NCBI GenBank assembly: GCA_001244265.2
Contig: CDLV01000006.1
Span: forward strand, 1,984,001 to 2,048,000
From: Microbotryum violaceum
Lineage: Eukaryota
DNA: 64,000 nt
Direction: 5' to 3'
Both the position numbers and the translations under genes were made by a program. The notes beneath the pieces were generated by a model. The model was not told the origin of the DNA and did not search any database. It saw only the letters and a program-made list of their open reading frames with translations. Below are positions 1,043-42,200 of this stretch, in pieces. Each line of letters opens with the position of its first letter. Positions within the stretch are counted from its first letter, which is position 1.

Positions 1043-4000
1043 TTAAGTTGGTACACGACGAACGCTCGAAACGCCATTCCAGACCATGCTGTTCGCGAGA
1101 ACGGATTTTGCGATCATGGTCAGTAAGTTCGGCAGTCCCATCAGCCCACTCATGTCGATAAATAACTGACCGTTCAAGCCAGAACGCTAGCCCCTCACTA
1201 GCATGGCCTCCTGAACTACTCCCGAGTACCATTCCCTCACCCCACAGCGTGTTGTGCGTGACGTCGCTGGCGCCAAACTGGACTTGGAAAGGCGTGAAGT
1301 AGTGGTGGTGGCTGATCGGAGTGAGCAGCGTACCGCTCTACAATTGCACACGAGCAGGCATGAGGCTCAGTGGAACATAAATCCTCGCACTTTACCCGTT
1401 TCTAACTCACAATGAAACCCGTGAGGAAGACGGCAACCGAGTAGAGGCAGAACGTCAGGGACGACTCGAGAATTTGGGCCACGTAAGGCTTGGCGAAGCC
1501 CGGGAACACCTGCGAGTTGTGGAAAAGAATGACAACACAGGTAAGTTGCGAAGCAAGGTCAAATGGGTTCTGAAGCACGTACATTGATGAAGAGCTGAGG
1601 TGCTTGAATGGCAGCTTTGGTACCCATGCGAGACAAGTACCTCCCTGCTCGCCTTGGGCCAAAGTGTTCGCGCGCGAGCAGGGTCACGGCTTGTCGAGGC
1701 GAGGAGGTTGTGACCGTGCCCTTCTTGGTCGATTCGAGCGCACGATCGAAGTCGAGCAGATCGATTCCAAGCTCCTCCGCAAATTTGGCACGCAGTTCTC
1801 CATCCGTGAGTGGTGGAGTGGCGGCACGTGGTGGCGGGGTGACCGAAACCTCCTGGTCGATTAGGGGTGCGGCGACGAGTCGAACTTGAGCGCCCGACAG
1901 GTCGGTCTGAACGTCCATGGCTCGAACTTCTGTAAGATCCGTCTGTGTTTCGATTTCGGCGAGAACGATCGATTGCTGGAGGCGTTGCACAAATGGTCCG
2001 GGGCCCGTCAAGGTGCCACTGCGTTTCTTCGTCTTCTTCTTGTGCTGTAGGAACACCCAGCTTTGTACGTCAGTGCCAGAGACCTTGGAGATTTTCAGAT
2101 CAGGAAGCTGACCCACAATCGTTCGATGAGTCGTCACGACCGTCTCGTTGACTTCATCGCTATCCTCAGCCTCGTCACTCTCCCCACTGTCCTTCTCTGC
2201 TTCCATCCTTGCAGCCATCGCTTCCTGCGCGAGATTGCGCGCGAGCTCCTTGCCTAGACTTCGACTCATCGAGTTCATGCTCCCGCGATCGGGCGAGCCT
2301 GACATGCCTCCTTCGAGGAATCCACTCTTGCGATTCGAAGATTGCATCTCTTCGAGATCGAAGCGTAAGCGATCGATCGTCTCTTTCAAGACAAGCTGAG
2401 GAGGAAAGCAGGAGCTTCAGGGTCTGGCCTAAAACACACGGTAGCTTCTTGGAAATGATTGACTCACGTTCTCTTGTTTCTGCGCATCGAGTGTGTCCTG
2501 AGCTTGACTGGCGAGCCTAAGGTCCGCTTCGAGCCTCGAAATGGCCCCTTGCAAGATCTCGCGATCTCGCTCGAGTTGCTGGGCCTGCAAAGATTGCGCA
2601 TGAGCCGTTTCCTCGGCCGCTCGGTTCTCCTGTGTGCGCCCAGCTGGTTGTCAACTGTGTGTCAGACGGGACAGCACCTAGAGTTTCCTTGAACGCACCC
2701 TTCGCGTCTCAGCCACGAGCGACCTGAGCTTCTCCGCCTCTTCGCACTGATCGAGGTAGTTGCGTTTCATCGAGTCGTACGACTCGCGCGCCTTCTCCAA
2801 TGCCTTGGTCATCTTGGCCACTTCCCCTTCGAGCGCCGAGATCTGCTGCAGGTGCTGGCGTTCGTTTGAGCGCAGGTCCTTCTCTTCACGTCGTTTGGCG
2901 ACGAGTTCGGTGCGCATCTCTTCAAGGCGACCTTCGAGCTCGTTGATTTGTTCTTCGTACGAGGAGGCGCTCGTCGAGAGTCGATCTTCCAACTCTTTGT
3001 GCTTCTTGCTCAGTCTGTCACAGCAGAAGATTGGGAATATCAGCCTCATCCAACTCTAGACCTGAGTTTGGGGACTCACTCCGTCGCATATTGCCACATG
3101 CCCTGCGTCGTCTGGGGATCGTTGCGACCGGTGAAAGGTGATGCGTCGTGCAAATCCGCGAGTTGGAAATCACCTCCCAAACCCATGCCTTCCACTTGGA
3201 AGATGCTTCCCGGACGACTGGGGCCCGAACTCGACGAGGCCGATGATGCATCGCGTTGCACGCGATACGAAAGCGGCGTCTCGGGACTGCCCGGAGCTTC
3301 ACCGAAGAAGCGCATGGAAATGACCGAGGGCTCGTGCTCGTCTTCGTGCCTGATTGGTGAGATCGGAGCCGAGTAGTAGCTCGTCGTGTCGATCGTCGAG
3401 ACGGGAGGGGAAGTCATCGAAGGGGATAGAGGACGTTCGCTCGGTGTGGTTGAGGAGCGTCGACTCAAAGATCGTTCGGACCCATCCGTTGGCGTCGAGC
3501 TGCGATTCCTCGAACGGACAAAGGAGGTTCCTTCCAACATTGTCGTCGGAGTCGGACTGCGAGCCAAGGAGGCGGGGCTCAAGGATCCGGATCGAAGACC
3601 TGATTCATTAGGGCTCCTAGCCTCCAGAGAACCTGAAGACGATGTGCTCTTGTTAAGATCCTCACTGGGCCGACGACGACGCGAGGGAGCGATGGGTCGA
3701 GCATGCCGGACCGAGTTAGTCGAGCTGTCGAGGCTTCCTCGAGCAGACGAACCGGGTCGATGTCCCAAAGGCTCGAGTGGGGTCGTGCGTTGAATGTACG
3801 AAAGGGAAGAGGTCGAGTGGCCTTCTGCCACCAGACTCAGGATAGGCTCGGACGCCGAAGGTGGTATTTTGAAACCGCGCGGGGCGGTGGGTGAGGACGA
3901 GCGCGACAAGGCTCCATCAGGACTTGCGATTCGCTCTGCTTCGGGCGAGTTGGCACGGGGGGAAGGCGGATTCGACAACTCACCAGTGCCTTCCAGTTCG

Positions 4001-6122
4001 GTCGGTGAAGATGAGCTGATACCAGATGACTCGGCCCCTCCCAAAGCCTTGCTGACTTCCTCCGGTAGCGAATTCGAGTTGTGCTTCGAAGCCAGGGCCG
4101 CAAGTCGTCGCTCGTCCTCGGCCGTCGACTCCGGTTCAGCAAGCGAGGCAGAACTGATGACGCCTCGGACGGCATCTCGGAACGCCGAAGCCGGCGTCGT
4201 CTCGGCGAGCACACGTTCTAGCAAGGGCTTCTTGTACTTCTTGGTGTACGCCTTTTGCACGAGCGCAAATCTCGGTCGGTTCCAATGCAGTCGAACGAGG
4301 CGCCAGGCGAACATGTCGTTCCTCGCGCCGGGCCCCTTGATCGCCGCTTCGAGCGACTTTGCATCGCGCCACACCCCTGGGCCTTCATCATCGTTCTTGC
4401 CATTTTCAACGGCGTGAAGCAGGAGCTTTGCGAGGGCCGGTGCAGCCGTTGAGTAAACCTGCTTGATCGACTGCGACAACGACTGGGGATGACTTCGGTA
4501 CTCAAGTGCCAGAGCATGGACATGCGCCGGTGAGCGCGCAAGAATAATCTTGGTTACGAAATCGCTATTGCCCCCCTTACGCAAGCCGACTTTGAGCATA
4601 TCGAGGTCGTTGTTGAGCAGTTCCTTGCGTTGCTCGGGGCTAAGGACGCTGTTGCCCTCTTCGTCGGTATCCTCCCATTTGGCCTGGAGGACAATCTCCC
4701 ACGCCTTCTTGAGCTTGGTGTTGGACGTCGCCGAGGCCAAGACCGCAGCATCGAGCGTCTTGTGTCGAGATCCGATCGAAGCCGTTGTCGCCGGCGTCGC
4801 GTTGGCGGCCGAAGAGCGAAAACGGTACGCGGCTCGGAGCAAAGCGACATCCGAAGGTGGCCGAGCCACTAGTAGATCGATGAGCAGGGACTGAGATACA
4901 GAACGGATGCCATAAGCAAAGCGTGCGAGGGTAGCATGAGGCTGTTCTGCAAACTGACAGTGTTGGTGGTACTACCTTCCAGGGCTCGACTGAGCAGATG
5001 AACGTCAAAATTGAGTGGTCCCATGATCAAACCTCGTAAGGCGTATTCGACTGCAAGTTCGGTCGACACCAACTAGGGTCAGCTCCGAATCGAGTCCTTC
5101 GGAACGAGGCCCGAACTTACGTTCCCCCTTGAGCCCCTTTGAGGTCGATACGTAGTCCAGCAGGGTGGCGCCGAACTTTTTCTCATAAGCTCGGTCGATT
5201 GCTCTAATTTGCGGCCAGGTCAAGCTGGACAGTGTTGTTGCCAACTCCTTGTCTCGGCCCTGCATGTTGCGACACATGAATGAGCCACTGATCTCGAGCT
5301 GATGAGTTCCAACTAGGACGGAGCATGACTGACGATGGCCTGTGAGCGAATCGCCGTCCGGATCGATTCGACTTTGCCATTGACGTCAAGCGACCCAACC
5401 GCTCCATCGAGAGGTACACCGAGGTATGTCCCACCTCTCGCCGCAACCAAGTCGGCTAATTCATGCTGCTGCGCCGTCAACGTTGCCGCCGAAGCTTTTG
5501 AGACGTCAAGTCCACTCGGAGTCGATGAGCGAGCGGGAGAGGCGCCGAACGACAGTTTGCCAGCAAGGAAGGAGCGCTTCTTCTTGATCGCAGATCGATT
5601 GAGGGGCGAGCTGGGCAGTGATGAGGTATCGGATTGGGTGCGGGTCGAATCGGCCCTGCGCCGAGGTGCAGGACTGCCATCGGCGATCGAGTCGAACGGA
5701 TCCGGCTGGAGCAAACCGAGGGCGACGGCTGACGAAGTGGGTGAGCTCGATCGAAGTGCAGTGTCACCGCTGTCCGAATCGAGCTGAACTTCGGTCGTAG
5801 AAGTAACGTTGCCGCTGTGGCGTCCGTCGTTCGTCCCATCGTCTGCCGGTGTGGTCGAAGCGCTGGCGGCGGAAGCGGCGATGAACGAGATGAGCATGTC
5901 GACGCCGACGCGTTGCTCCGGCATCTGCGCCGCGAATGCCCTCAGCTTGTCCTTCTCATCCTCCTGCAATAAGACCGTACCTCGTTGCTCCTCGAAGGTA
6001 TCGATCAGTTGGGGTAGGACCGCGAGGGGTATCGTCCTTTGCATCGGGTCAACCTCGGCGCCGTCATGGGGCTCATCGGACGCGGACGAATACGTCGCAA
6101 AGAGGTTGGCGATTTGGTCCAT
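1043..6122 (-). CDS. multi-exon protein: EF-hand-like N-terminus + annexin core + Ser-rich linker + coiled coil + C-terminal TM + tail ending RRVPT* (Kms1/KASH-like)
   Basis: ORFs 5313..6356, 5005..5277, 4869..5072, 3076..4869, 2678..3049, 1559..2389, 1402..1662 and 975..1232 join in frame through GT-AG introns (e.g. 5333-5260, 1170-1089). Annexin-type segments: QIRAIDRAYEKKFGATL, GLIMGPLNFDVHLLSRALEG, WRDAKSLEAAIKGPG, RLVRLHWNRPRF..YTKKYKKPLLERV. Coiled coil QKQENLVLKETIDRLRFDLEEM. TM LTFCLYSVAVFLTGFI. Stop TAA 1043-1045. The true start may lie in an upstream exon. Confidence 0.75.
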
Positions 6123-7163
6123 CAGCTCGGCTGCGCTGCGACGGTTCTGTAGGCGCACAAGGGCGTGAGGCGAGATATTGAGATTAGACACAAGATCTGA
6201 TTCGATCTTGAGACGGCATGGAGGTGTGTTTCGCCTCTGGGTGAGGCTCGCGTGGTGGTGGTGGTGGTGGTGGTGTCGGTAAACGAGATCGATGAACTGG
6301 AGCGGCGCGGCGCGCGAGCGCGTGACCTCTCGCGCGTGTTTTGTCAACCCATCCACAAGCCCACGACGCGGCGCTGCTGGTGGCAGTGGGGGTGGGGGGC
6401 GACTCGAAGAAGAGAAGCAACACTGTCACTTGGGAGGGGACTCACAGGTGTAGCAGCTGCAGCACGATTGTCGCGAAGAGGCGTTTGCTGTCAAAAAGAA
6501 ATGCAAGTAGACACAGCGAGTCAAGTCATTGATGTCCCGAGTCGATGAGACCCAGTTGGACGAGGAGGAAAGGAGGTAGAAAACTCGAAATAGCAGCCGA
6601 AGTGGCGCGGCGCTTTTCGGGCCAAGACGAAGCCGGCCGGCGTCTCCACCACACCGTGAACGCGTGACTTACGACCATGTTTTCGAAACAAAACAAAAAT
6701 CTCGGACTAGACTGAGAAACATGAGGTCAGAGCTCGATACTATGGAGCAATCCTGTTCGAGGCTGCCAAGACTCACGTTTCCGTCCCCGACGAATTCGGG
6801 TCGGCCGCGCTTGGACCGCCTCAGCCTCGCGTGCGGATGGGATGGACGAACGAGTCAAGTCGATCCGGGGGAAAAGCCGATTACGATCGTACGGTAGTTC
6901 GAGTGGAAGGGATGGTGGTGGGTGATGGGCAGGACAGAGGACAAAGGGAGCAAGGCTCGCTGGCACTAAACACTGACCACAGTCGTCGTCGGTCGTTCAC
7001 CCAGCGGCCCGAGCGGAATTCAGCACAGGCCCCTGAGTCTCGTTCAGCAGCAAATAACGGGCCTCCTGGCTCTCTCCGGCGGACCAGCTCAGAAGTTTTC
7101 AATAACTCGAGTCCAAGAGTCCCAAGAGTATACAAGTTGCAACACATTCGGTTAACTGACTAC

Positions 7164-8138
7164 CTACCAACCCGCGGCGCGTAATCTCTCCATCTCTTGC
7201 TCGACCAGACTGGCCTTGTCGCTCTTTCTCTCCTCGCGACTCTTCATGACGTTCTTCCTGATCTTCAAGCCTGTCGGTAACCTGTCCGCCGATCGACCAT
7301 CGCCCGGCGTCTCCAAATCCTCCGCATTGGCCCCACCTTCGTCGACGAGCTTCTTGAGCTTCTCGAGTTCCGCCTTGGAGCGCGACGCACCGCGGTACCT
7401 CGGCGACGAGACGCCGTACCTTTGCCCGTCACCGATCTGGAGCATCTTGCGATCCCTCATCGCTTCCATTCGGTCGCGCTCAAAGTGCTCGTTCAACCAC
7501 GTGCGGCTGCGTTCCTCGGGGTACCAAAAGGGCTCAGTCATGGTGACGATCACCTTCTTGTAATTCTTGGCCCCGCCGCCCCTCGAGTAGCCGCCGCCGA
7601 TCGGGTTGCGCTTCATCTTGGACAGATAATTGATCGTGCGCAACGAGGTGATAGTCAGGCCGTAGACGTTGCGCAGGTAGTTTGAGATGTCCGGTTTGGA
7701 CAGCCGCAGATCGGTGCGGAAGGTCGCGGTGTAAGGGTCGTTGGCGTGCACGCCTGTGTTGCGCACCAGGCGGACGAAGACGCTCGGGAGGTAGATCTTG
7801 ACCTCGCCCTGTTCGGCGAACTCGACACCATCCCGGATTGGGTTCAACGACTTGCGCACCTTGAACGGGGTGCGACCCTTCACGCGGGACGAGTGCTTCG
7901 AGTAGCGCGGTGCGGGCGGTTGTCGGACCTTGGGCGGGACAACGTAAGGATTCTTGTTCTTCTTCTTGGACACGGTCGCAGTATTGAGTACTGTCGTAGG
8001 GGCGTCGTAGGACGAGCTGACGACGGTGGCCAACGATCTGCAGCGCGGCATGATCATGGTCGTGGACGAGGTCGAGGCAGTCGCACTGGACGAGCTGATC
8101 TGCAGCCTCTTGAAGGCGGTACGAAGTGTAGCTTGCAT
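7164..8138 (-). CDS. MRP20: mitochondrial large-subunit ribosomal protein uL23m
   Basis: Intronless 324-aa ORF with an Arg/Ser-rich presequence and an L23 core (IYLPSVFVRLVRN, LSKPDISNYLRNVYGL, NYKKVIVTMTEPFWYP). Confidence 0.9.
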   Translation of the reverse strand: MQATLRTAFKRLQISSSSATASTSSTTMIMPRCRSLATVVSSSYDAPTTVLNTATVSKKKNKNPYVVPPKVRQPPAPRYSKHSSRVKGRTPFKVRKSLNPIRDGVEFAEQGEVKIYLPSVFVRLVRNTGVHANDPYTATFRTDLRLSKPDISNYLRNVYGLTITSLRTINYLSKMKRNPIGGGYSRGGGAKNYKKVIVTMTEPFWYPEERSRTWLNEHFERDRMEAMRDRKMLQIGDGQRYGVSSPRYRGASRSKAELEKLKKLVDEGGANAEDLETPGDGRSADRLPTGLKIRKNVMKSREERKSDKASLVEQEMERLRAAGW

Positions 8139-8605
8139 GCTGTGGCTAGACGGTCGCTCGGTTGAAGGGAACGGAGGTGCGACGAGAGAGCGCGCGGAGG
8201 AAAAGTGACTTGACTCTCACGATCAAACTTCGAGGAGGGGCGTGTGACGAGCCTTTATCGTCTATGCGCCAAGGTGCGGAGTTTGGTTCGAATCGAGAGC
8301 GTGTCTGCTGCCCCGTGGTTAAGTCGAGTCAGGCCGAGGATGAGAGGTCAGAGTCAAAACGGATTCCTGTCGGCTCGCAGTGCACTCTGACGACTTCGCG
8401 CGCTCCCGTCAGCAGCCGTCAGCTCCCGCGTGCCAGCCCGTGCCAAAAATGGCTGAGCATGGCTGAGCATGGCTGAGCCTGGCTGGGCGCTTGGTCGCTC
8501 GTCGAGCGTCTCGTGTCGGCCAAGTAATTCGCCGAACAGTCTCCGACTGAACGACGTTTGTGCCGATCTGTATTGATGAACATAAATAATATATAATAAA
8601 TGGCT

Positions 8606-10432: not shown

Positions 10433-10444
10433 GGTTATGAGCTC
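10433..10444 (+). promoter_or_regulatory. Copia primer-binding site (half-tRNA-iMet type), overlapping the gag ATG at 10437
   Basis: GGTTATGAGCTC immediately after the 5' LTR, resembling the GGTTATG(A/G)GCCC PBS of copia-type elements. Confidence 0.7.
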
Positions 10445-13400
10445 AACGGGCGAATCCGACTTCCCCAACGGGTCGGGCAATCGCTTGTATCTCAAGGACA
10501 CACAAGGGTACAAAAGCTGGTCACAACGTGCGTTTATCAATCTTCGAGCCGACAAAGTATGGGATGTCGTCAATCAACCCATCGACTCCCTTGTCGCGGA
10601 CTATCGGTCCACGCTCGTTATCACACATGCAACTGCGTCCGTCGCGCCAGTTGAACCAGCCTCCTCCGGCTTTAGCGGGCTTGGGGGGGGGCTCTGGTTC
10701 TGCGCACTCGGACGCCTCGCCCAGGCTCACCAGCGTTCAAGTTGCGGACAAGGTCGCGGAATATCGCGAACGGGCCATCCGCCGCAACGATTTGGCATGC
10801 AAGTACATCGCCAATTCGATCTCTGAGGAACAGATGTCTCACTTGATTCATCTTCTCTCGGCGTACGAGATGTGGGACGCCCTCCGTGGTCTCCACTCTC
10901 ACGGTCGCCCGAGTCGCACTATGGACCTCCTCAACACTCTAGCGCAACCTTACTCTGGGGATATTCCTTTTAAGGAATTCGTCAACAAGGTCAAGATCGC
11001 CATGTCCGATTTTCAGAACCTCGGAGCTCCGCTTCCGCATTGGCTGTTTGCAGGCATGCTCGTTCGGTCGCTCCCAGCCCAGTATGACTCGATCGTTGGG
11101 AACCTTGCCTCCGACATCGACATCCACATGGATTGGAACACGTTCTATCCGAAACTCCTGATGAATGTCGAAATGGCTGATTCCCAAAACAAACAAAAGG
11201 AATCGTTATCCGCTCGGATCATTGACGATACTAGCTTCGTCGCCCGTATTTCCAACACGGCGCAAAAGGACTACTCCAAGTCGTATTGTTCGCGCTGCAA
11301 AGCACTGGGACACGAGCGTGGTTGGCGTCTCTGTCCAAGCAGGAACAAGGATGCGAGCGCTCCCGCTTCCTCGGACTCAAATTCGAACGTAGCTGCCATT
11401 GGTGTAGATGAATCTGCATTGATGACCTACACTTTCCCCTATTTGCGAACGATGCCACATTTTCCATGGATCATTGACTCGGGTGCTAAGGTCCATTGCG
11501 TTGGAGACAAGTCGGTCCTATCGGACGTTGTCTCTGAGCCTCTCAAAATTTCTGTCGCCGATCAATCTCAAATCGAATCTCCCGGTCATGGCTCAGTAAC
11601 GTTTCTTACCTCATATGGCGCTCGTATCACCATTAAGAGGGTCTACTACATGCCCGGTGCTCAATGCGGTTTTATCTCCATCGACCGTCTGTTGGAATCG
11701 ATGACGTACGCTGTTGGTCCCCAAAGCAATCTCATTTTCAGCATCCGCGGCAAGTTGATTCTGCGCTCGCTTCCTGGTCGGGGGTTTGTCATGGATGCAG
11801 CTCCCGTTCAGCCTATCATGTCATCCTCACCGCCTTCAATGGTCGGAGCCAATCGTCTCACTGGAACCTGTACGTTGATGGAAGCACATCGGAAGTTGGG
11901 CCATCAATCCCCTGCGGCGATCGTTTTGGCCGTCAAATCCGGGGCTATCACTGGCATCACTCTGAAGGACGAAAGGGTTACTCCTTGCTTCTCGTGCATC
12001 CAGGCCAAGTCAAAGCAATCACCCTTCTCCAACAAGAGTACCGAAGCGCCTCATGCACTCTACCGCGTCTTCATCGATCTCGGGTTTGTCGAACATCCCA
12101 ATCACCATGGCAATACTATCTATCTCGCTATTGTGGATCAGTATTCGACGGCTAAATGGACGATTGTGCTAAAGGACAAGAGAGCTGAGACGATTATCGA
12201 AGCATGGTCGAAATTTCAAGCCGAGTCCGAGCGTCAAACGGGTCAGAAAATCAAGAGGGTCAGATTGGACAATGGTCGTGAATTCGACAACTCATTGTTC
12301 CGGGCTCTTCTTGAAAAACAGGGCATCATCGTGGAATTGACGGCCCCCTATACTCCGGAGCAAAATGGTAAAGTAGAGCGACTCAATGGATCTCTCATGG
12401 GTCTCGTTTGATCAATGCTCCTCGACTCCGGTCTTCCCATGCGATTCTGGTCAGATGCTCTGGCCGTCGCAACATTTGTTCTCAATTGTCGACCACATCC
12501 TCGTATTCAAGGAAAAACGGCAATCGAAGTTCTTCTCGGCAAGAAGCCTAGTCTTGCTCATCTTCAGCCATTCGGATCTACGGCGTTTGTCCACGTTCCC
12601 AGGGAGCGTCGCTCCAAGCTTGCACCTCGCTCCATTCAGGGAGTTTTCATCGGGTACTCCGGTGAATACAACTACCGTGTCTGGGTCCAATTGTCAAAAC
12701 AGGTCTACGTTTCGCGTCACGTCACATTCCTTGAGACTCCTTCCGTCGTCACTTCGTCTCAAGATCGTGCGGACGTTTCTGATCCCGTTCATCATTCTCA
12801 ACCTCCTCATCCTCCACCAGATGTGTTGCCGTCTACACCAACTTCACCTGTTGTGGATCCAACTTTGCCGGATCCACAGCCTCCTCCGGTGGTTCCAATT
12901 GGAGTTGGTCAACAGGGGGGGTATCTTGCAGTTGTTCCTCAAGAACCACTCGACGGTGAGGCGGAAGTCGCTCTCGCTCCTCGTGAAGGTTACGCCATCG
13001 TTCGCACTGGTCCAAATCCTGGCCAATTCGAGAATGTTGATCCTTCCAACATCCTTCCTGCTGGTTCTCGTCGTCGACCTCAACCTCCGGAAAATATACT
13101 TCCCATCATTTTGGCTATCATGGTCAATGTCTTGGATACTCCACCCATGTTCCACGACAAGCTTTCCTACAATGCCTACTGTGCTGCCGTGTTTGCCGAA
13201 GAAGACATTGAGAAGTTCGATTTTGCTTCTCCATCCAAGCGCCGTGCAATCACGCCCATGGACGATCGCCCCTCGCTTTGAATCAATGCTACTCCGTTTG
13301 CCAATGTGTCATTGTACCAATCGGCTGTGGGTTCCCTGCAGTACGCGTCCACTCGATGTCGACCCAATATCACAATTGCTGTTCGTGCCGTTGCTCAAAA

Positions 13401-16647: not shown

Positions 16648-19109
16648 ATGGCTGAATTGCTGCAAAAGGGCAAGGACCAGATCGTCGAAGCGCTCTCGCA
16701 GGCCACCGCCGCCGTCTCACTTGACTCGACGTGTGAGTTCCCTCCCACCCCACCAGCCGTCTGACCTGCTCGTAGGGCGCAGTACTTTGCTCGAGGCAGT
16801 GGCTGAACTTGAGGTGGTGTTCGCATTGATCACCTCACAGCCGCGGTCCACATCGACGAGGCCGCCGGCGACGACTCGACCGGTGACGGATCGACCGGCG
16901 CCCCTTTCAAGACCTTGCTCGGAACCTATATCGCCAGGGGGGACAACGTCATCGCGCTGACCCGCCAGACCAAGGAAAGTGCGACCGAATCGACCTACGA
17001 ACCCGTCACCGCCTCGGCGATCAAGAAGGCCAAGAAGCTCTACCTCCAACACCAGACCAAGCTCGCTCGCCAGGAGGAGCTCAGGAAGAAGGACGAGCTC
17101 GAGGGAGCGGCCAAGCGCGCGGCCGAGCAAAAAAAGCTCGACGATGCTCGTGCTATCGTCATTGAGCAACCAACCAGCACCGCAACCAAGATCAAGATCA
17201 GGTCTGCCGTCGCCAAGCGCGGAGAGCGCGTCCGAATATTCGGTTGGGTCCACCGACTGCGCCAGCAGGGTGCCATGATCTTTCTCGTGCTCAGGGACGG
17301 TACAGGCTACCTCCAATGCGTATTGACCGGAAAGTTGGTAAGTGGCCGCAGAGAGGTACAGGGGACTAGAATTATTTGGATTCAACGGTCTTGACTTTGC
17401 TGTCGACTCAATTCTCCCTTCGACTCTTTCGGCATCCACAGCCCTTGACCTACGATGCGTTGACGCTCACCTTGGAATCGACAATCGAGATCACGGGCAC
17501 CATCAACGAGCTTCCGGCGGGCAAGACCGCTTCTGACAACCACGAGTTGACGGCCGACTGGTTCTCCGTCGTCGGCAAAGCCCCTGGAGGCGACGAGGCC
17601 TTCCTCAACAAGGTTTCCGAGGTGAGTCTGGATTTGCGGCATGCCCAGCAACGTGGCTACAGCAAGCTCATCATTCCACTATCAAACTCCTATTTCCAGG
17701 ACCGAGACCCGAGTCTGCTCGCCGATGCTCGGCACCTCGTACTTCGAGGTGAAACGGCGTCGACTGTGCTCAAGGTCCGAGCCGCTCTCTTGCAATCGTT
17801 CCGCGACTCGTACGCCAACTTGGGTCTGCTTGAGGTCACACCCCCGTGCATGGTCCAAACCCAAGTCGAAGGTGGCTCGACCTTATTCAGCTTCGACTAC
17901 TACGGAGCACCGGCTTACCTGACCCAGAGTTCGCAACTCTACCTCGAGACGTGCTTGCCCAGTCTGGGTGACGTCTTCTGCGTCGCCGAGTCCTTTCGTG
18001 CCGAGAAGAGCCACACTCGACGACACTTGAGTGAATACACCCACGTCGAGGCCGAGCTGGCGTTCCTCACTTTCAACGAACTCCTGGATCATCTCGAGGA
18101 GGTGGTCAGTTTCCACCCCTCTTGCGTGAATGCAATCCGTCGAGCAGCAATAGTGCTGACCGACAAGTTTCTCTCATCCGCCTTCGGAACACACCACAGA
18201 TCTGCCAAACCGTTGACCGAGTCTTGGCCGAGCCCAAGTTGAAGGCCATGATTGATTCGCTCTGGCCTGCCGGCGAGTCGTTCCAGGCGCCGCAGCGTCC
18301 CTTCATGCGCATGGACTACCGCGACGCGATCAAGTACCTCAACGATCACAACATCCTTCGACCCGGCCCTGACGGTGTCGATGGCCCGCATCAAGTCGGC
18401 GACGACATCGCCGAAGCTGCCGAGCGCAAGATGACAGATCAGATCGGCAAGCCCATCTTCCTCGTCGGGTTTCCGAAGGAGATCAAGTCGTTCTATATGC
18501 AGCGCATCAAGGGCGACGAGGGGTACACCGAATCCGTCGACTTGCTCATGCCCAACGTCGGAGAGATCGTCGGTGGCTCGATGAGGATGGACAATCTTGA
18601 AGAGCTGATGAGCGCCCTCAAGCACGAGGGGATTGATCCCGCCCCTTAGTCAGTCCCGGCTCTTCCCAGTGGCTTTTTCTGATTCTGATCAGCCCCCACT
18701 AACCGTGTCCGCGCCTGAAAATCGCCATCTCTCCTGTGCACGGCGACACCAACGATCGTTCTCCGAGACAATAGCTACTGGTACACCGACCAGCGCAAGT
18801 ACGGCACGTCCCCCCATGGAGGTTATGGCCTCGGTCTTGAAGTAAGCCTCCTGTCCACATTGGTCCGAGCGGAAATGGTTTCTCTTGGCCCGTCGGCTGA
18901 TTACCCATTGCCGCCGGTTCATCCGTCTCGTAGCGACTGCTCGCCTGGATGTGCAACCGATACACCGTCCGTGATTGCTCCTTGTACCCGCGGTAAGTCC
19001 GTGTCGTAGACTCGGCGTCTTTTAGCGCGCTAGTGACCGAACTGACAGGGGTCTTTCCGACTCGGGATCGTCGTCCTTCGGCAGCTGGACCGGGCGCGCG
19101 ACACCTTAA
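16648..19109 (+). CDS. DED81: asparagine--tRNA ligase, cytoplasmic (multi-exon)
   Basis: [83 protein letters not shown]; ends WTGRATP* at 19109. Confidence 0.95.
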
Positions 19110-21047: not shown

Positions 21048-23484
21048 ATGTCCATCACCGAGGTGATTCAGCCGGCCATCTACCCTTCATTCGCCGCTGC
21101 TGCCGCTGCTGCCTCGACTTCGGGCTCCAGCTCCAGCTTCAGAACCATCTCGAAACCCATCGCAGCCAATCTTTCCTCACTCTCGTTACCCCTATCCACT
21201 TCGACAACAATAAAGATGCCCATCGATCCACAAGCTCTTAAGCAGGACTTTGACGCCGGCGTCGACAAGATGCGCTTCGCGACCAATGCGCCGACGCCCG
21301 GTGGTGACATCGTGCTCGGATCCGGATCCGCGTCGCTGCAGAGTTCTTCGTCGCAGGCGATGCTCATGAACGGCGGAGGTCGCGCTAGCAGCATACCTGG
21401 CTCAACCCTAATGAACGATGCGATGACCGGTGGACCCATCAACGCGAATGATCCTCCCAACTACGGTCCTGGGGGCTTTGGCGGTGCCGCGGCGTCGTTC
21501 ATTTCGGCCCACGCGCCCGAGATGCAGCAGCAGCCGTTGGGCGCTTTCGGTCCAGCTTCGCCCTTCTTCGGTGCCGCGACTCTTCCACCGCCACCACAAG
21601 TCGGCAGCTTTGGTGGGTCCCCTGCGCTCTCGTCGAACGGCTTCTCGAGCCCCTTCCTCGGCCAACCCGGTCAGGCAACGTTCGAGGGCCACTCTGCACC
21701 GCAGCAGCAGCAGAATCAAAACCGCCGAGGTGTGGCGCAGTCGACTAGCCCCTATGCCACGTTCGGATCGCCGGCCCATGCGAACGGGCCAACACCGAAC
21801 AATGGCCAGCCTGGCTTCAACGCGACGGGCATGAATGGCTATGGCTCGCCCTCGATGATGGGGATGATGTCGCCGATGATGAACATGTCCTTGCCTCAGC
21901 TGGGCGCTCCCTTTGCGAACCAGGGCGGCTTCAACTCGGGCCAGCCTAACATCTTCCCGATGAGGCCTACGGCCAACAACCTTGCCAGTCTGGGCCACAA
22001 CAACCTCAACCCTACGCCAACAGTAAGTGTCCTGGCCGAAATCTTCGTCGAATCTCCGACCCTATGATCCGCAAAGCTGACGTGCCTCGTTTCACCTGAG
22101 CCCATAGGGACGTACGGTCTATGTCGGAAACTTGCCCTCGGATGCTTCGGTCGACGAACTGCTCAGCCTCATTCGGTTCGGCCCCATCGAGGCCGTCAAG
22201 ATCATCCCCGAGAAAAGCTGCGCGTTTATCTCCTTCCTCGACCAACTCACCGCCGCCGCATTTCACTCGGACGCCGTCTTGCGTAAGCTGCGACTTCACG
22301 AGAACGACCTCAGAATCGGATGGGGCAAGCCTACTGTCGTTCCGGCCATCGTTGCTCAGGCGGTGCAGCAATCTGGTGCGACCAGGAACGTCTACCTCGG
22401 CAACCTCGACGAGTCGACAACGGAGGAGAGCCTGCGCGACGACCTGTCGCGGTTCGGCCCCATCGACCAGGTCAAGATCGTCCGTGACAAGAATATCGCC
22501 TTTGTCCATTTCCTGTCGATCGGTACCGCCATCAAGGTCATCCAGGCTTTGATCGCCGAGCCCGAGTACGCGGGTAAGCGAGTCTCTTTCGGCAAGGATC
22601 GCACGGCGTACGTTCCGAGGAGTCAACAACAGCAGGCGCAGCATAACCTCGCAGCCGCAGCTATGGGCCAGATGGCGGCCAACTATGGTATGTACAGTGC
22701 CTTTGGCTCGCCTCACTTCCCCGATGGTGTTGGCTCTCAAACGCTAGGCAGTGACCCCAACGGCGTCCCTGGCAACCGCACCATCTACCTCGGCAACATC
22801 CACCCTGATTCGACGACGGAGGAAATCTGCAACACGATCCGAGGAGGCATCTTGCAACAAGTGCGCTACATCCCCGAGAAGCACATTTGCTTCATCACCT
22901 TTGTCGAGCCGCAGTGCGCACTCGCTTTCTACCAGCATGCGTCGTACCAGGGCCTCGCTTTGCACAACCGTCGCCTTAAGATCGGTTGGGGCAAGAACTC
23001 GGGGACGACGCCGCCTGGGATCGCCATGGTCGTGCAGTCGGGTGGATCGCGCAACGTCTACGTCGGCAATATCGAGGACTTTGAGCGCTTCTCTGAAGAG
23101 CGACTGCGGAAGGACTTTGGCGAGTACGGCGATATCGAGCTCGTCAACTTTTTGCGCGAGAAGCAATGCTGCTTTGTCAACTTCACTAACATCGCCAACG
23201 CCATCAAAGCGATCGAGGGCATCAAAGCGAACCCCGAGTACGCCGGGATCAAGATCAGCTTCGGCAAGGATCGGTGCGGTGGACTGCCTCGTTCGTACCC
23301 GTCGACGCAAAGTCGCGTTCGGCACCATCACCACCACCACTACCACCCTCAGCAAGCCCCACTCCCCGGCATAAGCTCGCCTTCGGTCGGCGCGGGCCAC
23401 GACGGTTTCGACACGTCGGCGATGCCTCACTCGTCGGGTCTCATGCTCGAAGATGGCGCGAATCAGTCCGTCGCCGTCGCATAA
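21048..23484 (+). CDS. MRN1: four-RRM RNA-binding protein, Mrn1/S. pombe Nrd1 type
   Basis: Low-complexity N-terminus (start 21048 or 21216), intron ~22024-22108, then repeats RTVYVGN, ATRNVYLG, NRTIYLGN and GSRNVYVGN with IGWGK/FGKDR ends. Confidence 0.88.
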
Positions 23485-34830: not shown

Positions 34831-36539
34831 TCACTCCTCATCATGACCATCCTCGGGTTCAGGATACCGCCAATGGTCGATCGCATCCCTGGTGGCTTCG
34901 TAGACGGCGAAACTGGTCCCTATCGACGGGCCGACCTTGAGTAGGTTACTGCACGGCGAGATAATTGAGGCGGTCAGTAAATGTTATATGTATTCTTCAC
35001 CGGACGCGTCACTCACGGAATAATACCTGTGTTTGGTCAATCAGTGAGGGAACGTAGCTCCATCAGCACACTTCGCGCAAGCCTGAATCTCGTATAATGA
35101 CTCCCGCAAAACCCACCCTTGTACAATCCCTTAAGCCCCTCCTTCCTGATAATCGTAAATACCGCATTCCAAGCCCCCGAATACTCATAACCCAGGCCCT
35201 TTACTCCAACAACCTGCATCCTCCTCCTCAACACATCCAAAGGGTACGTCAACGTCTGCGAGATGCTCCCCGCCAAGGCCCCGCAACACAATTTCTCCAA
35301 CGTCCCCGGTGGATGTCCTTCGGCGTTGGAGAGGTATATCTTGAAGGATTCGTAAGCGGCGAAATTGATCGCAACGTAAGGGGCTACACCGGCGGCTGTG
35401 GGGGTTAACCCTCGATAGAGGCCTTTGAAGCCGTTCTCCTCCCGAAATACTCTGACCGTCATCTTCCATATCCCTGTGCTCTTTTTCGGTGAGTCCGATG
35501 ACAGCCCCAACGAGGCCGATTCGATGGATAGACGAGATCGAACGAGGTCGAGTGGATAGGTCGAGACGACCGAGGCGATCCCGGCGAGTGAGCCGGCGAG
35601 TAGGCGACGAGGAGTATCGATTTCGCTTCCATTTGATGCGAGGAATCCTTTGACGAGTTCATAAGACGAAAACTGGACGGCTGAATAGGGCATGATGCGG
35701 AGACAGTTGATGCCGTTCCCTTTCATGTACCCTGCGAAGGCGGCACAACAGAAGAGTTAGAAATTTCTGACGAGGTTCGTCCCTGGGCGCAGACATCACG
35801 AACCTTTGAAGCCTTCCTCCTTCCACATCTTGGCCAAACTAGGAACGATGCCTTGGTACTCTCCTCTTGTACCTTGGACTTGTAAAATGATCTGTGGGGT
35901 AGGAGGGGGGGGAGGGGTTTCGCGACGATCAGCTCGCCGAATTTGGGCCGCCCCCCATTTCTCTTCGGTCGACAACGTTCGAGCGAGTGCATGCCATACG
36001 TACCTTTAACCGTTCCAAAGGGGATACGACCGTTCTTGATGCAGCACCCGCAGCGGCTCCAGCTGAAAACGACGAACCCAGGGACGAGGCGTCAGTGATC
36101 CGACGTAGCCCGGAAGGAGGAGCTCGCGATTGGGATTGGGATGGGGAACTCGGAGAAACTGACCTATGAAAGCCGATGCGGGTGGTAGAGGGAACAAGGG
36201 TAGTTTGGAGTCTCTGGACCATGAGATAACAAAGTTGGGGGAGGTAGGGTTGGGTGGGATCGGGTGCGAAGTCGGTGGGGTCGCTGCTGCTGCTGCTGCT
36301 GCTGTATTGCTGGTCCCGATTGACCGGTTCGAGTTAAAGGTGAGTGCCGATGGCGCTGCCGATGGCGCTGCCGCCGTTGCCGCTACCGCTGCTGCCGCCG
36401 TGTGAGCACGACTCGTACCCGACGTCGCGCCGGCGAAGCTCCCAGTCGTCCCGGCTCGCTCAGAAACATGTGCCCATAAGCACGAGCTCGAGCCGGTCGG
36501 ATAGCTGGTGGTTGTGGTCGGATCAGGAAAGTGGGCCAT
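34831..36539 (-). CDS. mitochondrial carrier family protein (SLC25; YPR011C/SLC25A42-like)
   Basis: Three PX[DE]XX[KR] signatures (PLERLK, PLDLVR, PLDVLR), GNGINCLRIMPYSAVQF, PNLLKVGPSIGTSF; 10-nt microexon 35017-35026; stop at 34831. Confidence 0.92.
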
Positions 36540-37252: not shown

Positions 37253-38495
37253 CTAGCCCATTGCAGCCCATTCCAAGGAGAAATACTCGACCTTGTCCTC
37301 TTTCTCGTCCCAGCTGGCCAAGAGGTGAGCCTTTTTCACCGCCGTCGCCAGTCGACCGTACGAGATGAGATCCAGTGGCATGATTTTTTGATCCAACGAC
37401 GAGAGCACGGTTAAGGTGAAATGCGAATGGTATCGTAATGGATCGCCTAGGGAGATATAATAACCAACGTTTCGGTTAGCCTTCCAAACCGCGTCGTATT
37501 GAAATCTTTTCGGGAAGAACGAACCGGGGTAAACCAAGAAATCGCCGCCAAACCTCAATCCACCTCCCATGAAATGACCTTTCCTCCACAGGTCCTCAAA
37601 GACATTGGACCGACTCTGTTGCAGCTGATTCGTCGGGTAATCCCACACGCCTGCCTCTTTAGCAGCTTCCAGAGTCAAATACGACGCCCAAGCAGGATCG
37701 TGCCAGGGTGCGTCGGTCGAGGAGCCCTGAATCATGATCGTATACGGCACACCGCTGAGGTCCTCGTTGGCTTCTCTTGTAGGTGCCGACGATGTCGACG
37801 CGACGGGTGATTTCGATCTCCCATTCGGTTCCAAGTCGGGGACATTGAGTTGCCAAACCCCTATTTCTGCTTGTATCTCTGCAGATGCGACTTCCTCGTC
37901 ATTCGCCCGTGTTTCGACGGGTTGATTCTTCTCTGATTTGAGCAAGCGTTTCTTCTCAATCTTGTCTTTGAAGAGGTGGGCCATCTTGACTTTCTTCTCT
38001 TGCTCGAATTGACGGATGTGTTTCTGCTGGGCTTGGATCGCGGATTGGCGTTGGAAGTCGTAGTGGGTCGCTTGTTCGGTCGTTGGGGGGTGATGCGCTG
38101 CTCGGTCGTCGATGAGGACAGCAAGGTCTGATGAAAGTGGGGTCGAAGAATGAGTTGGATTCTGTCTCGTGGATCCGGTCGTGGCAACAGGGCGAGAACT
38201 GACTGTTGCGAACGAGCAAGACCGTCTCGTCCGGCAGCAGCAGCAACGGAATCCCTAAAAACACGTTTTGTTGTCCGACCTGGGGCAGAGTGCCGGAAAG
38301 CGCACCACAAATATGATGATTCACTCGAAGGGTTTGCAAGTCTGCTGGGACGGGCGGGTCCAGTCAGCTTGCGATCCCGGTGCCCGCGAAGACTCAAAGA
38401 ATGGGGGTGTTCCATGTCGTACCTCGTACATCCCAGATGTAGCCACGTTGGTTCGAAACGTAGATCTTGATGCGCTCTTGTTCTGGTGGTGACAT
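37253..38495 (-). CDS. SEN34: tRNA-splicing endonuclease subunit Sen34
   Basis: MSPPEQERIKIYVSN, HHICGALSGTLPQVGQQNVFLGIPLLLLPDE, GGLRFGGDFLVYPG|DPLRYHSHF, GRLATAVKK, YFSLEWAAMG*. Confidence 0.93.
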
Positions 38496-39292: not shown

Positions 39293-42200
39293 ATGGCCTC
39301 TGCCAATAACTTTACCGAAGCCGCTCAGAGGTCACTCGAGGCTGCTCTCTCCCTCGCCAAGGAGCATTCCAACTCACAGGTAAGCTGCAGGCAGTCACTC
39401 TTCCCCCAGAACGACCATCGCTGCATTCATGACGTCGACCGGACACGAGCTGACCTCGTCTCCTCTTCCACATAGGTCGCACCAGCTCATCTCGCCTCGG
39501 CCCTGCTGACGCCTTCGACAGCAGAGGGAGCTCAACCAGGACAGACCTTGTTCCACTCCATTCTCAACAAGGCAAGCTCCCCGCCTCCACCTTCACCGCC
39601 CCACCTCGTGAGCCACAACTGACCATTTCTTCCATTTGCTTCTTTCTCCCAGGCTGGCGCACAACCCGAAGTCTTTGCACGGTCCCTGGCCAAATTCATC
39701 GTACGCCTTCCCGCACAAGAGCCCGCACCCGATGATGTCTCGCTCTCGCCCGGGATGGGCAAGGTCATCACCACCGCCAACAAGATCGCCAAGGAGAAGA
39801 ACGACACCTTTGTCGCCCAGGACCACCTCATCCTCGCGCTCGTACAGGACTCGGCCATCACGAACATGCTCAAGGAGGCCGGTTCCAACGTTGAGGCCGT
39901 CAAGAAGGCCGCCGATCAAGTCCGAGGCGGCAAGCAGGTCAACTCGCGAGGCGCCGAGGACGGCTTCGAAGCACTGTCCAAGTACGCTCGCGATCTCACC
40001 ACCGAAGCTGAGCAAGGCCGGCTCGACCCTGTCATTGGACGAGACAACGAGATCCGACGCTGCATCCGCATCCTCTCGAGGCGGACCAAGAACAACGCCG
40101 TCCTGATCGGTGAGCCCGGTGTCGGCAAGACCGCCGTCGCGGAAGGGTTGGCCCAACGAATTACGAATCGCGATGTTCCACCGTCCTTGCTCGGTCGCTT
40201 ATGGGCGCTCGACGTCGGTGCTTTGACCGCTGGTGCTTCGTACAAGGGTCAATTCGAAGAGCGACTCACGTCCGTCATCACCGAGGTTGAAAAGTCTGAA
40301 GCGCCCGTCATTCTCTTTATCGATGAGGTGAGTTCACCATGAGCTAGGCTGACCTCCTTCTTCAACCGAAACTGACTATCTCCTCTCCTTTATACGATGA
40401 CAGATGCATCTGCTCATGGCCGGTCAAGGAGCCTCGGGCGGTGGGCTGGACGCCGCCAACATTCTCAAGCCCTCGCTCAGTCGAGGCAAGATCCGCTGCA
40501 TTGGTGCGACCACCCTTTCCGAGTACCGCAAATACATCGAGAAAGATGCCGCTTTCGAACGGCGATTCCAGACCGTGCAAGGTAAGTCTGACTGGCGTAG
40601 TAAAGTGTTTCGACCTTTCACTGACCTTTTGACCTTCTTTGCTTCCTACCGCAGTCAACGAGCCGTCGGTCCCGGAAACGATCTCGATCCTGCGAGGTAT
40701 CAAGGAAAAGTACGAGCTGCACCACGAGGTCAGCATCGCCGATGCGACGCTCATCTCGGCCGCCACGCTCGCCCATCGTTACCTCACCTCGCGAAAGCTG
40801 CCCGATGCCGCCATCGACCTCATCGACGAGGCGGCCTCCGCCGTTCGCGTCGCTCGGGAATCTGTACCAGAGGAGGTTGATAAGGTGAGCCCGGTCCGAA
40901 GCATCGCGCTCAATGTGCACACCAGATGCTAACCTCGAAAATCCTTCCCACAGATTGAGCGCGCCAAGCTGCAACTCGAAATCGAATTGCACGCGATCCG
41001 CAATGAGCTTTCGAAGAACAAGAACGACGAAGTTGCCAAGGCCAAGATCTCCGAACTCCAACAGCAAGTGGCACGCCTCGACGATCAACTCAAACCCATC
41101 ATGGCACGTCTGTCCGCTGAAAGGAGCAAGGGCGAGGAGATCAATACCATCAAGCGCAAAATCGACGAGCTCCAAGCCAAGGCCGCGGACGCCGAACGAC
41201 GCTATGACCTTGCAACAGCCGCCGATCTTCGTCACTACGCGATTCCTGATCTACAAACTCGTTTGGCAAGCCTCGAGACCCAGAAGAAGGAGGAGGATGC
41301 TCAGGCCAGGGCATCGGGGATTGAGATGCTCGCCGGCGACGTCGTGCTGCCGGAACACGTTCAAGCGGTGGTGTCGCAATGGAGCGGAATTCCTCTCCAG
41401 CAGCTGCGTCTCACCGAAAAGGCGAAGCTGATGAAGATGGAGTCGATCCTGCGCAAAGAGGTCGTGGGGCAGAATGACGCCGTCGCCGCCGTCGCCAACG
41501 CCATTCGCCTTTCTCGATCCGGCCTCTCGAATCAAGAACGACCGATTGCCTCGTTCCTGTTCGTCGGTCCTTCGGGAACGGGCAAGACGCTCCTGTCCAA
41601 GGCTCTGGCACGCTTCTTGTTCGATTCGCCTGACGCGATGATCCGAATCGACGGATCCGAATACAGCGAGAAGCATTCCATCTCGCGCTTGATCGGATCT
41701 CCACCTGGCTATGTCGGTCACGAGGAAGGAGGCACTTTGACCGAGTACGTTAGGCGTCGACCGTACTGCGTCATTCTCATCGACGAAATCGAAAAGGCGT
41801 CGCGCGAAGCCATTCTCTTGCTTCTTCAGGTCCTTGACGATGGGGTGAGTCGTTTTCGTGCCATGATTCATTCTTCAGCGCATGTACTGACGTCGCTTCC
41901 CCTTGCACATCCGCTCACAGCGCTTGACGGACTCTCAGGGACGCGTCGTCTCGTTCAGGAATGCCGTCATCATCATGACTTCGAACCTGGGTGCCGCCTA
42001 CCTCTCCGACCTTCCCGAAACGAACACCATCCCCCCTGCGACCCAAGAGCTCGTCCAAGGGGCGATCCGGGCCCACTTCCCACCCGAGTTCATCAACCGC
42101 ATCGACTCGACCATCATCTTCGCCCGCCTCTCGAAGGACCAAGTCCGTTCGATCGTCGACATCCGCATCGCCGAAGTCCAAAAACGACTACGCGCCAACG

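Follow-up and report, generated by a model that had tools for sequence, protein, structure and literature searches.

An annexin core embedded in a tail-anchored, KASH-like coiled-coil protein of Microbotryum

Structure and splicing of MVLG_03599

The stretch of DNA considered here (the window) comprises 64,000 nucleotides (nt) of Microbotryum violaceum contig CDLV01000006.1, from position 1,984,001 to 2,048,000 of the forward strand. Near its start lies MVLG_03599, a single minus-strand gene at 6122..1043 whose product combines a putative EF-hand-like N-terminal domain, an annexin core, a Ser-rich linker, a long coiled coil and one C-terminal transmembrane segment, and ends in VRRVPT. The coding region starts with the ATG at 6122, stops with the codon at 1045-1043, and is divided into 11 exons by 10 introns; the joined exons amount to 4362 nt. 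The introns are short (65-82 nt), all 10 start with GT, and nine end with CAG and one with TAG. The spliced translation is 100% the same as the deposited 1453-amino-acid (aa) MVLG_03599 protein (P0001) of Microbotryum lychnidis-dioicae p1A1 Lamole, which carries the UniRef name “Annexin ANXC4”, and the long exon taken alone (3082-4890, minus strand) also has 100% identity to P0001. The splice sites and the identity to P0001 confirm the location given to the gene in an original prediction made from the DNA letters alone. The intron placed by that prediction at 5333-5260 is exact. Its exon model is otherwise correct except that the junction at 3083-3018 is slightly off (the intron is at 3079-3015) and the intron at 2116-2045 was missed. 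The annexin, Ser-rich linker, coiled coil, transmembrane segment and VRRVPT ending that it named are all found, and the EF-hand-like N-terminus is borne out only in part.

Evidence for splicing came from contigs of sequencing runs X2 and X4, in which all 10 introns are removed. These runs represent one coded organism that is ~3-4% diverged from the window, and their label as RNA is a guess; no sequencing run holding the MVLG_03599 stretch is recorded as RNA. One 3815-nt contig is spliced from ~2044 to 6199 and covers the N-terminus, the annexin, the linker and the coiled coil, and a second spliced contig (1088-1985) includes the last exon, which encodes VRRVPT. The junction of the last exon, 1088/1171, is joined in contigs of this close relative and the translation equals the deposited protein, indicating that the RRVPT exon is used. 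The locus is unspliced and in one piece in the DNA-like run X6, and run X1 holds only unspliced pieces of it. Two further joints were seen in run X2 alone. One is an alternative joint at 1094/1171, 6 nt from the main end of the last intron (depth 23.7 vs 94.2); the other, 1226/1885, skips 658 nt with non-canonical ends and is likely an assembly artefact.

Exon 1 encodes, in one frame, the N-terminal domain together with the beginning of the annexin; exon 4 (1811 nt) likewise encodes annexin repeats 2-4 and the whole linker in one frame; and the annexin-fused form is annotated in all 8 matches of a first search. MVLG_03599 is one spliced gene encoding one protein, not two genes. Because the annexin shares exons 1 and 4 with its flanks and the introns are spliced in the contigs, very little room is left for a reading as two merged genes, and the claim of a single protein in the original prediction stands on the ~2044-6199 contig, the removal of 10 of 10 introns and the identity to P0001. 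What counts against it is that the spliced contigs come from a close relative with a guessed RNA label, and that contigs cannot prove a single full-length molecule.

The 5′ leader (6184-6280, minus strand) has features of its own. A (CAC)8 run at ~6257-6280 would encode eight His residues in an open upstream frame, and a short out-of-frame upstream open reading frame (ORF) begins at an ATG at 6219 (MPSQDRIRSCV), with the ATG kept at the matching place in the contigs of the relative. Upstream of the start codon, the reading frame keeps a likeness to the longer N-termini seen in other orthologues (NRRSAAEL vs HRKSQIEL), but lacks an ATG.

The annexin core and its insertion into a fungal family

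Annexins are calcium- and lipid-binding modules built of four tandem repeats of ~70 aa, which fold into an alpha-helical disc and bind acidic phospholipids in the presence of Ca2+. The annexin core was recognized by three approaches. The Pfam model PF00191 (cut-off 25 bits) scores 46.7 bits on P0001, and 119 bits over three stretches on the orthologue P0004. A profile built from eight orthologues (A1) aligns at positions 247-586 to a whole four-repeat annexin VI lobe (362-664) with an E-value of 1.6e-35; the same profile has 76 matches at E<=0.01 among PDB sequences, and the best 60 of the 76 are all annexins or annexin fusions. The AlphaFold2 (AF2) model of aa 341-670, which covers the second half of repeat 2 through repeat 4 (exon 4) and leaves repeat 1 outside, has a pLDDT of 78.5 and 85 PDB matches at E<=0.001. 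These are led by annexins A2, A13, A11 and A1, with a root-mean-square deviation of 2.6-2.8 Å over ~248 columns, and the PDB rows among the matches listed are annexins, annexin A2 fusions or giardin. The Pfam match, the profile alignment and the predicted fold thus confirm that MVLG_03599 carries a complete four-repeat annexin core, and bear out the annexin-type repeats of the original prediction. Identity across the class is 46% in the annexin core vs 37% in the N-terminal domain, which argues that the core is under constraint and maintained by selection.

The annexin type II Ca2+ loop consists of G-x-G-T and an acidic residue ~40 aa downstream. It is outlined in a mini-review of fungal annexins (PMC4656261). 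In the Microbotryum protein, repeat 1 reads SQAIGRD, with both G-x-G-T and the acidic cap lost, repeat 2 has no G-x-G-T, and repeat 3 reads RKGGNSD, the usual form of repeat 3, also without G-x-G-T. Repeat 4 (KGPGAR with Glu) is the sole repeat that keeps G-x-G and the acidic cap. Three deeper-branching orthologues (P0004, P0017 and P0023) have the canonical KGxGT in repeats 1 and 4.

The backbone into which the annexin is set was traced with the C-terminal 514 aa, which found 33 proteins, 21 from Microbotryomycetes and 12 from Agaricomycetes. Precomputed Pfam annotation places PF00191 in 19 of the 21 Microbotryomycete proteins, the other two being N-terminally cut models on short contigs, and in none of the 12 Agaricomycete family members, which are 857-1230 aa long. 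A Pfam scan likewise found no annexin in 20 diverse members of alignment A3. The Agaricomycete members align to the N-terminal domain, the short linker motifs, the coiled coil (QKQENLxLKETIDRLRFD.DEMR), the transmembrane segment and the tail, and the annexin appears in the alignment as one inserted block between conserved flanks. The basic segment given in Table 1, which lies directly upstream of the annexin core, occurs in alignment A2 only in annexin-bearing orthologues.

A profile search of 1.84 billion representatives returned 982 proteins at E<=0.001, 309 of them at E<=1e-30. Family membership was read from the best 150 of the 982 matches, not all of which are named, and the distant end of the family, to which any ascomycete or Kms-like members would belong, lies beyond these. 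The named members include rusts (Melampsora, Cronartium, Phakopsora), Mixia, Ustilaginomycotina (Violaceomyces), Tremellomycetes (Phaffia, Mrakia, a Cryptococcus sp., Cryptotrichosporon), Cantharellales, Sebacinales, Auriculariales, many Agaricomycetes, and Glomeromycotina (Geosiphon, Acaulospora); one chytrid match is weak (E 3e-4) and less certain. An A3 profile search of a word-indexed database returned only three proteins, from Phaffia, Mrakia and, weakly, the chytrid. A metagenome relative, P0065, is annexin-less, and its linker motifs are closest to those of Microbotryomycetes. As judged from these alignments and searches, the backbone is an old fungal family and the annexin is a lineage-specific insertion, seen only in Microbotryomycete members. 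With no annexin in the other groups sampled and none in P0065, the insertion is best placed on the Microbotryomycete stem. The check for orthologues with and without the annexin across Basidiomycota, which had accompanied the original prediction, thus found both forms.

The backbone from N-terminal domain to terminal peptide

The core of the N-terminal domain is modelled by AF2 with a pLDDT of ~82-87, in the order helix-(beta)-helix-helix-(beta)-helix as in an EF-hand pair. Its best Foldseek rows are apo S100 and calmodulin, both weak (E 0.2-2, TM-score 0.5-0.55). The Pfam model EF-hand_7 matches three of the 20 A3 members; it reaches an E-value of 3.8e-4, below the cut-off, on the Glomeromycotina orthologue P0153, and that protein and a Cantharellus N-terminal extension both fall at E 2-4e-4, sub-threshold. 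Several results count against an EF-hand assignment. Foldseek returns no match to the domain at E <= 0.001, the top VIA Z is 6.3 (troponin C), where Z < 8 may reflect only a common arrangement, and none of the basidiomycete N-termini has a Pfam EF-hand match (24 N-terminal pieces scanned). The EF-hand-like N-terminus of the original prediction is consistent with the AF2 topology and matched weakly or below threshold by Foldseek, VIA and Pfam, so that the domain is only weakly suggested by the model to be an EF-hand pair. In the Cantharellus anzutake protein P0082 (1142 aa), a C2 domain (E 7.6e-10) and a sub-threshold EF-hand_7 precede the family N-terminal domain; either the model has been mis-merged with a neighbour, or the scaffold has independently captured a Ca2+/lipid-binding module for a second time.

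Co-folding of the EF-like domain with the annexin module gave a score of 0.53, the best of three controls scoring 0.00; at least 80% of contacts are shared between runs, and the partner pLDDT is at least 70. The mark used for co-folding is reached by 51 of 78 solved complexes and by 2 of 108 mismatched pairs; with a score at or below 0.60 it is reached by only five of the 78 solved complexes and by all four mismatches (of 180) that pass. These predictions weakly suggest that the EF-like domain pairs with the annexin module. Interpretation of the score is complicated by the fact that S100-annexin complexes are solved, so that it may be a recall of known structures.

The linker contains short conserved motifs, RHARPIAPSRRRR, ARSPTP and IDTTSYY..PISP, that recur in rusts, Mixia, Ustilaginomycotina and Tremellomycetes. 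Two of the patterns, R-x-R-P-[IVM]-[AP]-P-x-R-R-[RK] and [IVL]-D-x-T-S-[YF]-x(3-5)-[IL]-S-P, are found beyond the class amid a linker that is otherwise unalignable. These recurring motifs may be docking or phosphorylation sites. The coiled coil that follows is the best-conserved region of the protein, with 61% identity across the class. Its 182 aa include no Pro, 66% are E, K, R, Q, L or A, and the hydrophobic autocorrelation peaks at lags 7 and 14; in the C-terminal half, Pfam scans picked up no more than a scatter of coiled-coil families, all sub-threshold.

Between the coiled coil and the membrane segment lie two [TV]-Q-T-D motifs, 12 residues apart, in which Q1230, T1231, Q1242 and T1243 are invariant in alignments A1 and A6. 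TQT-type motifs number 3-4 in Agaricomycetes and 6-7 in the chytrid relative. The dynein light chain LC8 recognizes peptides with a TQT anchor that is followed by an acidic residue at +2 and in many cases preceded by another at −4 (PMC6607443). The two motifs of MVLG_03599 follow these rules and are, by their sequence, candidate LC8 sites.

The membrane segment is the sole 19-residue window of P0001 with a Kyte-Doolittle mean of at least 1.6, and lies 65 aa from the C-terminus. All 13 family members checked have their most hydrophobic window 55-95 aa before the C-terminus, and for the 12 of them that are basidiomycetes or glomeromycetes the distance from the transmembrane segment to the end is 55-78 aa. 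The hydrophobicity scan and the spliced translation thus bear out the single C-terminal transmembrane segment and VRRVPT end of the original prediction, and the caveat attached to it, that the tail is longer than classical KASH peptides, holds for a tail of 65 aa. Basic residues before the transmembrane segment suggest that the tail is luminal and the bulk of the protein cytoplasmic. An Atlas search with the tail alone (aa 1290-1453) returned no usable match.

In alignment A2 the terminal peptide has invariant R at −4 and P at −1. A tail profile built without the last five columns was run over 199 stored proteins, and 95 of these reach the end of the profile. The penultimate residue is Pro in 92 of the 95 complete tails; 60 tails finish with T, 15 with S and 11 with V, and 53 stop exactly 5 aa past the profile. 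The endings found in the family are RVPT, RIPT or RLPT, with GWPT in Agaricomycetes; the orthologue from a Cryptococcus sp. ends in GRIPT. Selection by a receptor that reads a free C-terminus would be expected to yield such a strictly terminal, near-invariant Pro-X with a fixed stop. Of luminal receptors of this kind, SUN, with KASH as its ligand, is the best known.

Table 1. Features of MVLG_03599 and other features of the window
Feature	Position	Strand	Basis or remark
MVLG_03599, whole coding region	1043..6122	-	1453 aa + stop; translation = P0001
MVLG_03599, exons 1-4	6122-5334, 5259-5121, 5050-4959, 4890-3080	-	Splice sites read by hand
MVLG_03599, exons 5-8	3014-2699, 2629-2468, 2395-2117, 2044-1583	-	Splice sites read by hand
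MVLG_03599, exons 9-11	1509-1411, 1337-1171, 1088-1043	-	Splice sites read by hand
Four-helix EF-hand-pair-like domain, aa 27-88	5859..6044	-	AF2 model, Foldseek, VIA
Basic segment KKKRSFLAGKLSF, aa 180-192	5547..5585	-	Alignment A2 columns 299-315; R/K-R-x-S pattern
Annexin core, four repeats, aa ~240-590, exons 1-4	4141..5405	-	Pfam, profile, AF2 fold
Ser/Pro-rich linker, probably disordered, aa 591-935	3106..4140	-	22% Ser; low pLDDT at start
Coiled coil, aa 936-1125, including family signature QKQENLVLKETIDRLRFDLEEM	2330..3105	-	Composition, periodicity
Two [TV]-Q-T-D motifs, AEIETQTD (aa 1225-1232) and RAMDVQTD (aa 1237-1244)	1901..1960	-	Motif match
Single transmembrane segment SSLTFCLYSVAVFLTGFISGTLL, aa 1366-1388, intron 9 inside	1323..1464	-	Kyte-Doolittle
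Presumed luminal tail, aa 1389-1453, intron 10 inside	1046..1322	-	Conserved from Glomeromycotina to Basidiomycota
Terminal peptide R-R-V-P-T, then stop	1046..1060	-	Alignment A2, tail profile
Ribosomal protein L23 domain, upstream neighbour	7164-8216	-	PF00276, E 2.2e-9
Copia-type long terminal repeat retrotransposon frame	10441-12411	+	Gag (Retrotran_gag_2), Pol beta-barrel domain, integrase core (rve)
Class II aminoacyl-tRNA synthetase	17370-18649	+	Pfam
RRM protein	22108-23484	+	Pfam
Mitochondrial carrier	35037-35756	-	Pfam
tRNA-intron endonuclease	37253-38254	-	Pfam
ClpB/Hsp104-type AAA protein	39623-42342	+	Pfam
PLD-like protein	46924-47985	-	Pfam

Elsewhere the window holds a retrotransposon frame and, by Pfam, ordinary housekeeping genes (Table 1). 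The upstream L23-domain gene probably encodes mitochondrial L23. Since the models P0008, P0017 and P0022 join L23 to the annexin protein, gene order here is conserved across Microbotryomycetes and the fused models are likely mis-merged. No SUN-domain gene was found by Pfam among the 38 long ORFs scanned in the window.

A candidate KASH-type linker and the alternatives

The architecture of MVLG_03599 has parallels with several known systems. KASH5 (CCDC155), a vertebrate meiotic KASH protein and dynein adaptor grouped with LRMP, has its parts in the order seen here: an EF-hand pair at the N-terminus that binds no Ca2+ (an EF-hand-like domain in MVLG_03599), then a coiled coil, a C-terminal transmembrane segment and a short conserved luminal peptide (PMC10071310). 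A KASH5 cluster was also rank 4 in an Atlas feature search (score 0.83), which is treated as a lead. In contrast to KASH5, MVLG_03599 has no sequence or Pfam match (EF-hand_9, KASH_CCD), has a very long linker and no Spindly motif, and ends in R-V-P-T, not PPPX, after a tail about twice as long; KASH5, in turn, has no annexin. The plant KASH proteins (WIP, SINE1-5) are tail-anchored and their last four residues, LVPT or PLPT, follow a hydrophobic-Pro-Thr pattern like that of the fungal family; these residues were deleted to test SUN binding (PMC4050730). The plant luminal tails are only 9-16 aa long (PMC4050730), compared with 55-78 aa in the fungal family, and the cytoplasmic domains are unrelated. 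Given that the kingdoms differ, the likeness of the endings would be convergent or very ancient.

Among fungal proteins, fission-yeast Kms1/Kms2 and budding-yeast Mps2 are membrane proteins of the spindle pole body and nuclear envelope that bind SUN in the lumen, and Kms1 binds dynein; Mps2 illustrates that a SUN partner need not carry a recognizable KASH domain (PMC2733748). Kms1 differs in having a short KASH domain (PMC3410425), and neither an EF-hand nor an annexin is reported for it in the available parts of the literature. The original prediction had likened the protein to Kms1/Kms2, in part through an N-terminal EF-hand-like region. That likeness is not supported, as the available parts of the two sources mention no EF-hand for Kms1 (PMC3410425, PMC2733748) and it is KASH5 that has one (PMC10071310). 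MVLG_03599 shares with annexins, such as fungal ANXC and annexin A2-S100A10, a full four-repeat core, and the adjoining domain has apo S100 proteins as its nearest, though weak, Foldseek neighbours and scores weakly as a partner of the annexin module. It differs from them in that the core lies inside a 1453-aa membrane protein with mostly degenerate Ca2+ loops in Microbotryum; the word “transmembrane” does not occur in the available parts of the fungal annexin mini-review (PMC4656261) and a preprint (10.1101/536193), nor “coiled” in those of the review. Multivalent LC8 clients such as Nup159 and ASCIZ have, like MVLG_03599, tandem [TIV]-Q-T-[DE] motifs in a disordered stretch by a dimerizing coiled coil. 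The Microbotryum protein differs from these clients in having only two motifs, and some family members have none.

Taken together by analogy, these parallels suggest that MVLG_03599 may be a KASH-type component of a LINC complex (a bridge that joins nucleoskeleton to cytoskeleton), anchored in the endoplasmic reticulum (ER) and outer nuclear membrane, with a SUN-held tail and a dynein-linked arm. Of the known mechanisms this one fits the anatomy best, and we judge the reading to be evenly poised between right and wrong. It is held at this level because no KASH homology was found and the tail is about twice the classical length. Under the KASH-type model, the protein would enter the ER and outer nuclear membrane by its tail, leaving its bulk in the cytoplasm, and on the luminal side the SUN domain of the Sad1 orthologue would hold on to the Pro-Thr peptide at the C-terminus, forming a KASH-like LINC bridge. 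The coiled coil would dimerize the protein, the TQT motifs would recruit the LC8 light chain on the cytoplasmic side, and the light-intermediate chain of dynein may be bound by the EF-hand-like domain, as happens with KASH5; through these contacts the nucleus or spindle pole body would be coupled to microtubule motors. The annexin would add a second, lipid-binding contact, between the cytoplasmic arm and acidic membranes, with at most one canonical Ca2+ loop kept in Microbotryum, and this attachment might be controlled by the neighbouring S100-like domain. The roles in spindle-pole-body insertion or envelope repair proposed in the original prediction are speculation.

A number of observations weigh against the KASH-type model. 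There is no sequence match to any known KASH protein. The Pfam models KASH, KASH_CCD and EF-hand_9 are unlisted for the window exons, four orthologues, 20 diverse members and 24 N-terminal pieces. Little can be read from the missing match to the Pfam KASH model (PF10541), as animal nesprins are what that model was made from. The conserved Spindly motif (L[FA]xE) or a CC1 box (AAxxG) occupies no column common to at least four of the 13 A2 rows. EF-hand dynein adaptors (KASH5, CRACR2a, FIP3, ninein) are characterized by a Spindly motif after the coiled coil. The motif is mentioned in the KASH5 paper (PMC10071310), and the ~850 aa between the N-terminal domain and the coiled coil (~250 aa in annexin-less members) are unlike KASH5. 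No TQT motifs are present in the Mixia, Cryptococcus sp., Cryptotrichosporon, Serendipita and Glomeromycotina members, and many TQT peptides do not bind LC8 (PMC6607443). The Ca2+ loops of the Microbotryum annexin are mostly degenerate. The terminal motif is R-R-V-P-T, with no PPPX present, and the tail of 65 aa (55-78 aa in the family) is about twice that of opisthokont KASH proteins and far longer than that of plants, the reference lengths being ~30 aa and 9-16 aa, respectively (PMC4050730). Because its tail is longer than these reference lengths, the protein is called KASH-like and is not filed as a member of the KASH family. The KASH architecture of the original prediction is thus matched in the order of parts, the single transmembrane segment and the conserved terminal peptide (in its plant-type form), but the tail is longer, no Pfam KASH match is listed and nothing in these data ties the protein to Kms by sequence.

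Alternative explanations differ in how much of this evidence they accommodate. An annotation artefact, in which an annexin gene and a coiled-coil/transmembrane gene were wrongly merged, draws on the fact that some models of relatives are clearly mis-merged: P0008, P0017 and P0022 include the ribosomal L23 domain encoded upstream, UPF0014 is attached to three Agaricomycete models, and C2 is found in a Cantharellus model. Such a merger is scarcely credible for MVLG_03599, where the annexin starts in exon 1 with the N-terminal domain and ends in exon 4 with the linker, the relative's contig runs spliced from ~2044 to 6199 with 10 of 10 introns removed across the contigs, and the annexin flanks align on both sides to annexin-less orthologues. 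A true Kms1/Kms2 orthologue, diverged beyond recognition by BLAST, would account for the likeness to Kms1, a spindle-pole-body membrane protein that binds Sad1 and dynein and has a short KASH domain (PMC3410425, PMC2733748), and an Ascomycota cluster of 891-aa hypothetical proteins is rank 3 in the Atlas search (score 0.83, a lead). This explanation is decidedly unlikely; Kms1/2 are described as having no close homologues in other species (PMC4050730), and no ascomycete is among the named members, although these come from the best 150 of 982 matches, not all named, in which ascomycetes may be hidden.

The main rival, which we consider somewhat doubtful, is that the protein is tail-anchored in the ER, the Golgi or some other organelle and acts there as a SUN-independent coiled-coil tether, either golgin-like or an anchor for a microtubule-organizing centre or motor. 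The Pro-Thr peptide of such a tether would be read by another luminal factor or serve in sorting or retention, and the annexin would be a second membrane contact. The lack of homology to known KASH proteins and the length of the tail, which exceeds that of classical KASH tails, are as expected for a tether of this kind. Its Atlas neighbours include Cep57, ApsB/Cnn-type and Rab11-FIP coiled coils with scores of 0.78-0.83, like KASH5 (leads), and LC8 is a general dimerization hub and no marker of dynein cargo (PMC6607443). Weighing against an organelle tether are the near-invariant terminal Pro-X with its fixed stop (92 of 95), an ending that fits the plant KASH pattern (PMC4050730), and the fact that Basidiomycota have Sad1 but no identified KASH partner (PMC6034078). 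Moreover, there are no Pfam matches to golgin or CASP families.

SUN proteins are easily found in every eukaryote; their KASH partners evolve fast, and whole phyla are without one assigned. In a 2018 study of Cryptococcus neoformans Sad1, no KASH protein was identifiable, according to the available part of that paper (PMC6034078). A literature search, largely outside subscription journals, found no later identification of a KASH protein for Basidiomycota, and no report of an annexin core within an integral membrane protein or of the architecture of MVLG_03599. The capture of an annexin by a KASH-like tail-anchored linker is the new point; the host family is itself uncharacterised. A further-reaching proposal, rather unlikely but not far-fetched, is that this family supplies the KASH partner that Sad1 lacks in Basidiomycota and Glomeromycotina, as an ancient KASH5-like fungal bridge that recruits LC8 and dynein, and that in Microbotryomycetes a whole annexin captured beside its S100-like EF-hand domain gives it a built-in S100-annexin-type switch. 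If this were true, the xVPT ending would be an old eukaryotic way of engaging SUN, as plants use, and through the switch acidic membranes could be gripped by the nuclear envelope or spindle pole body, for instance during the movement of the nucleus into the bud, when the envelope is opened and resealed. The family provides a concrete, testable KASH candidate with orthologues in the tractable Cryptococcus and Rhodotorula toruloides, for which the prediction is simple: both location and function should require Sad1 and the final few residues. The annexin-less sister lineages offer a natural experiment on what an annexin adds to a membrane-to-cytoskeleton linker.

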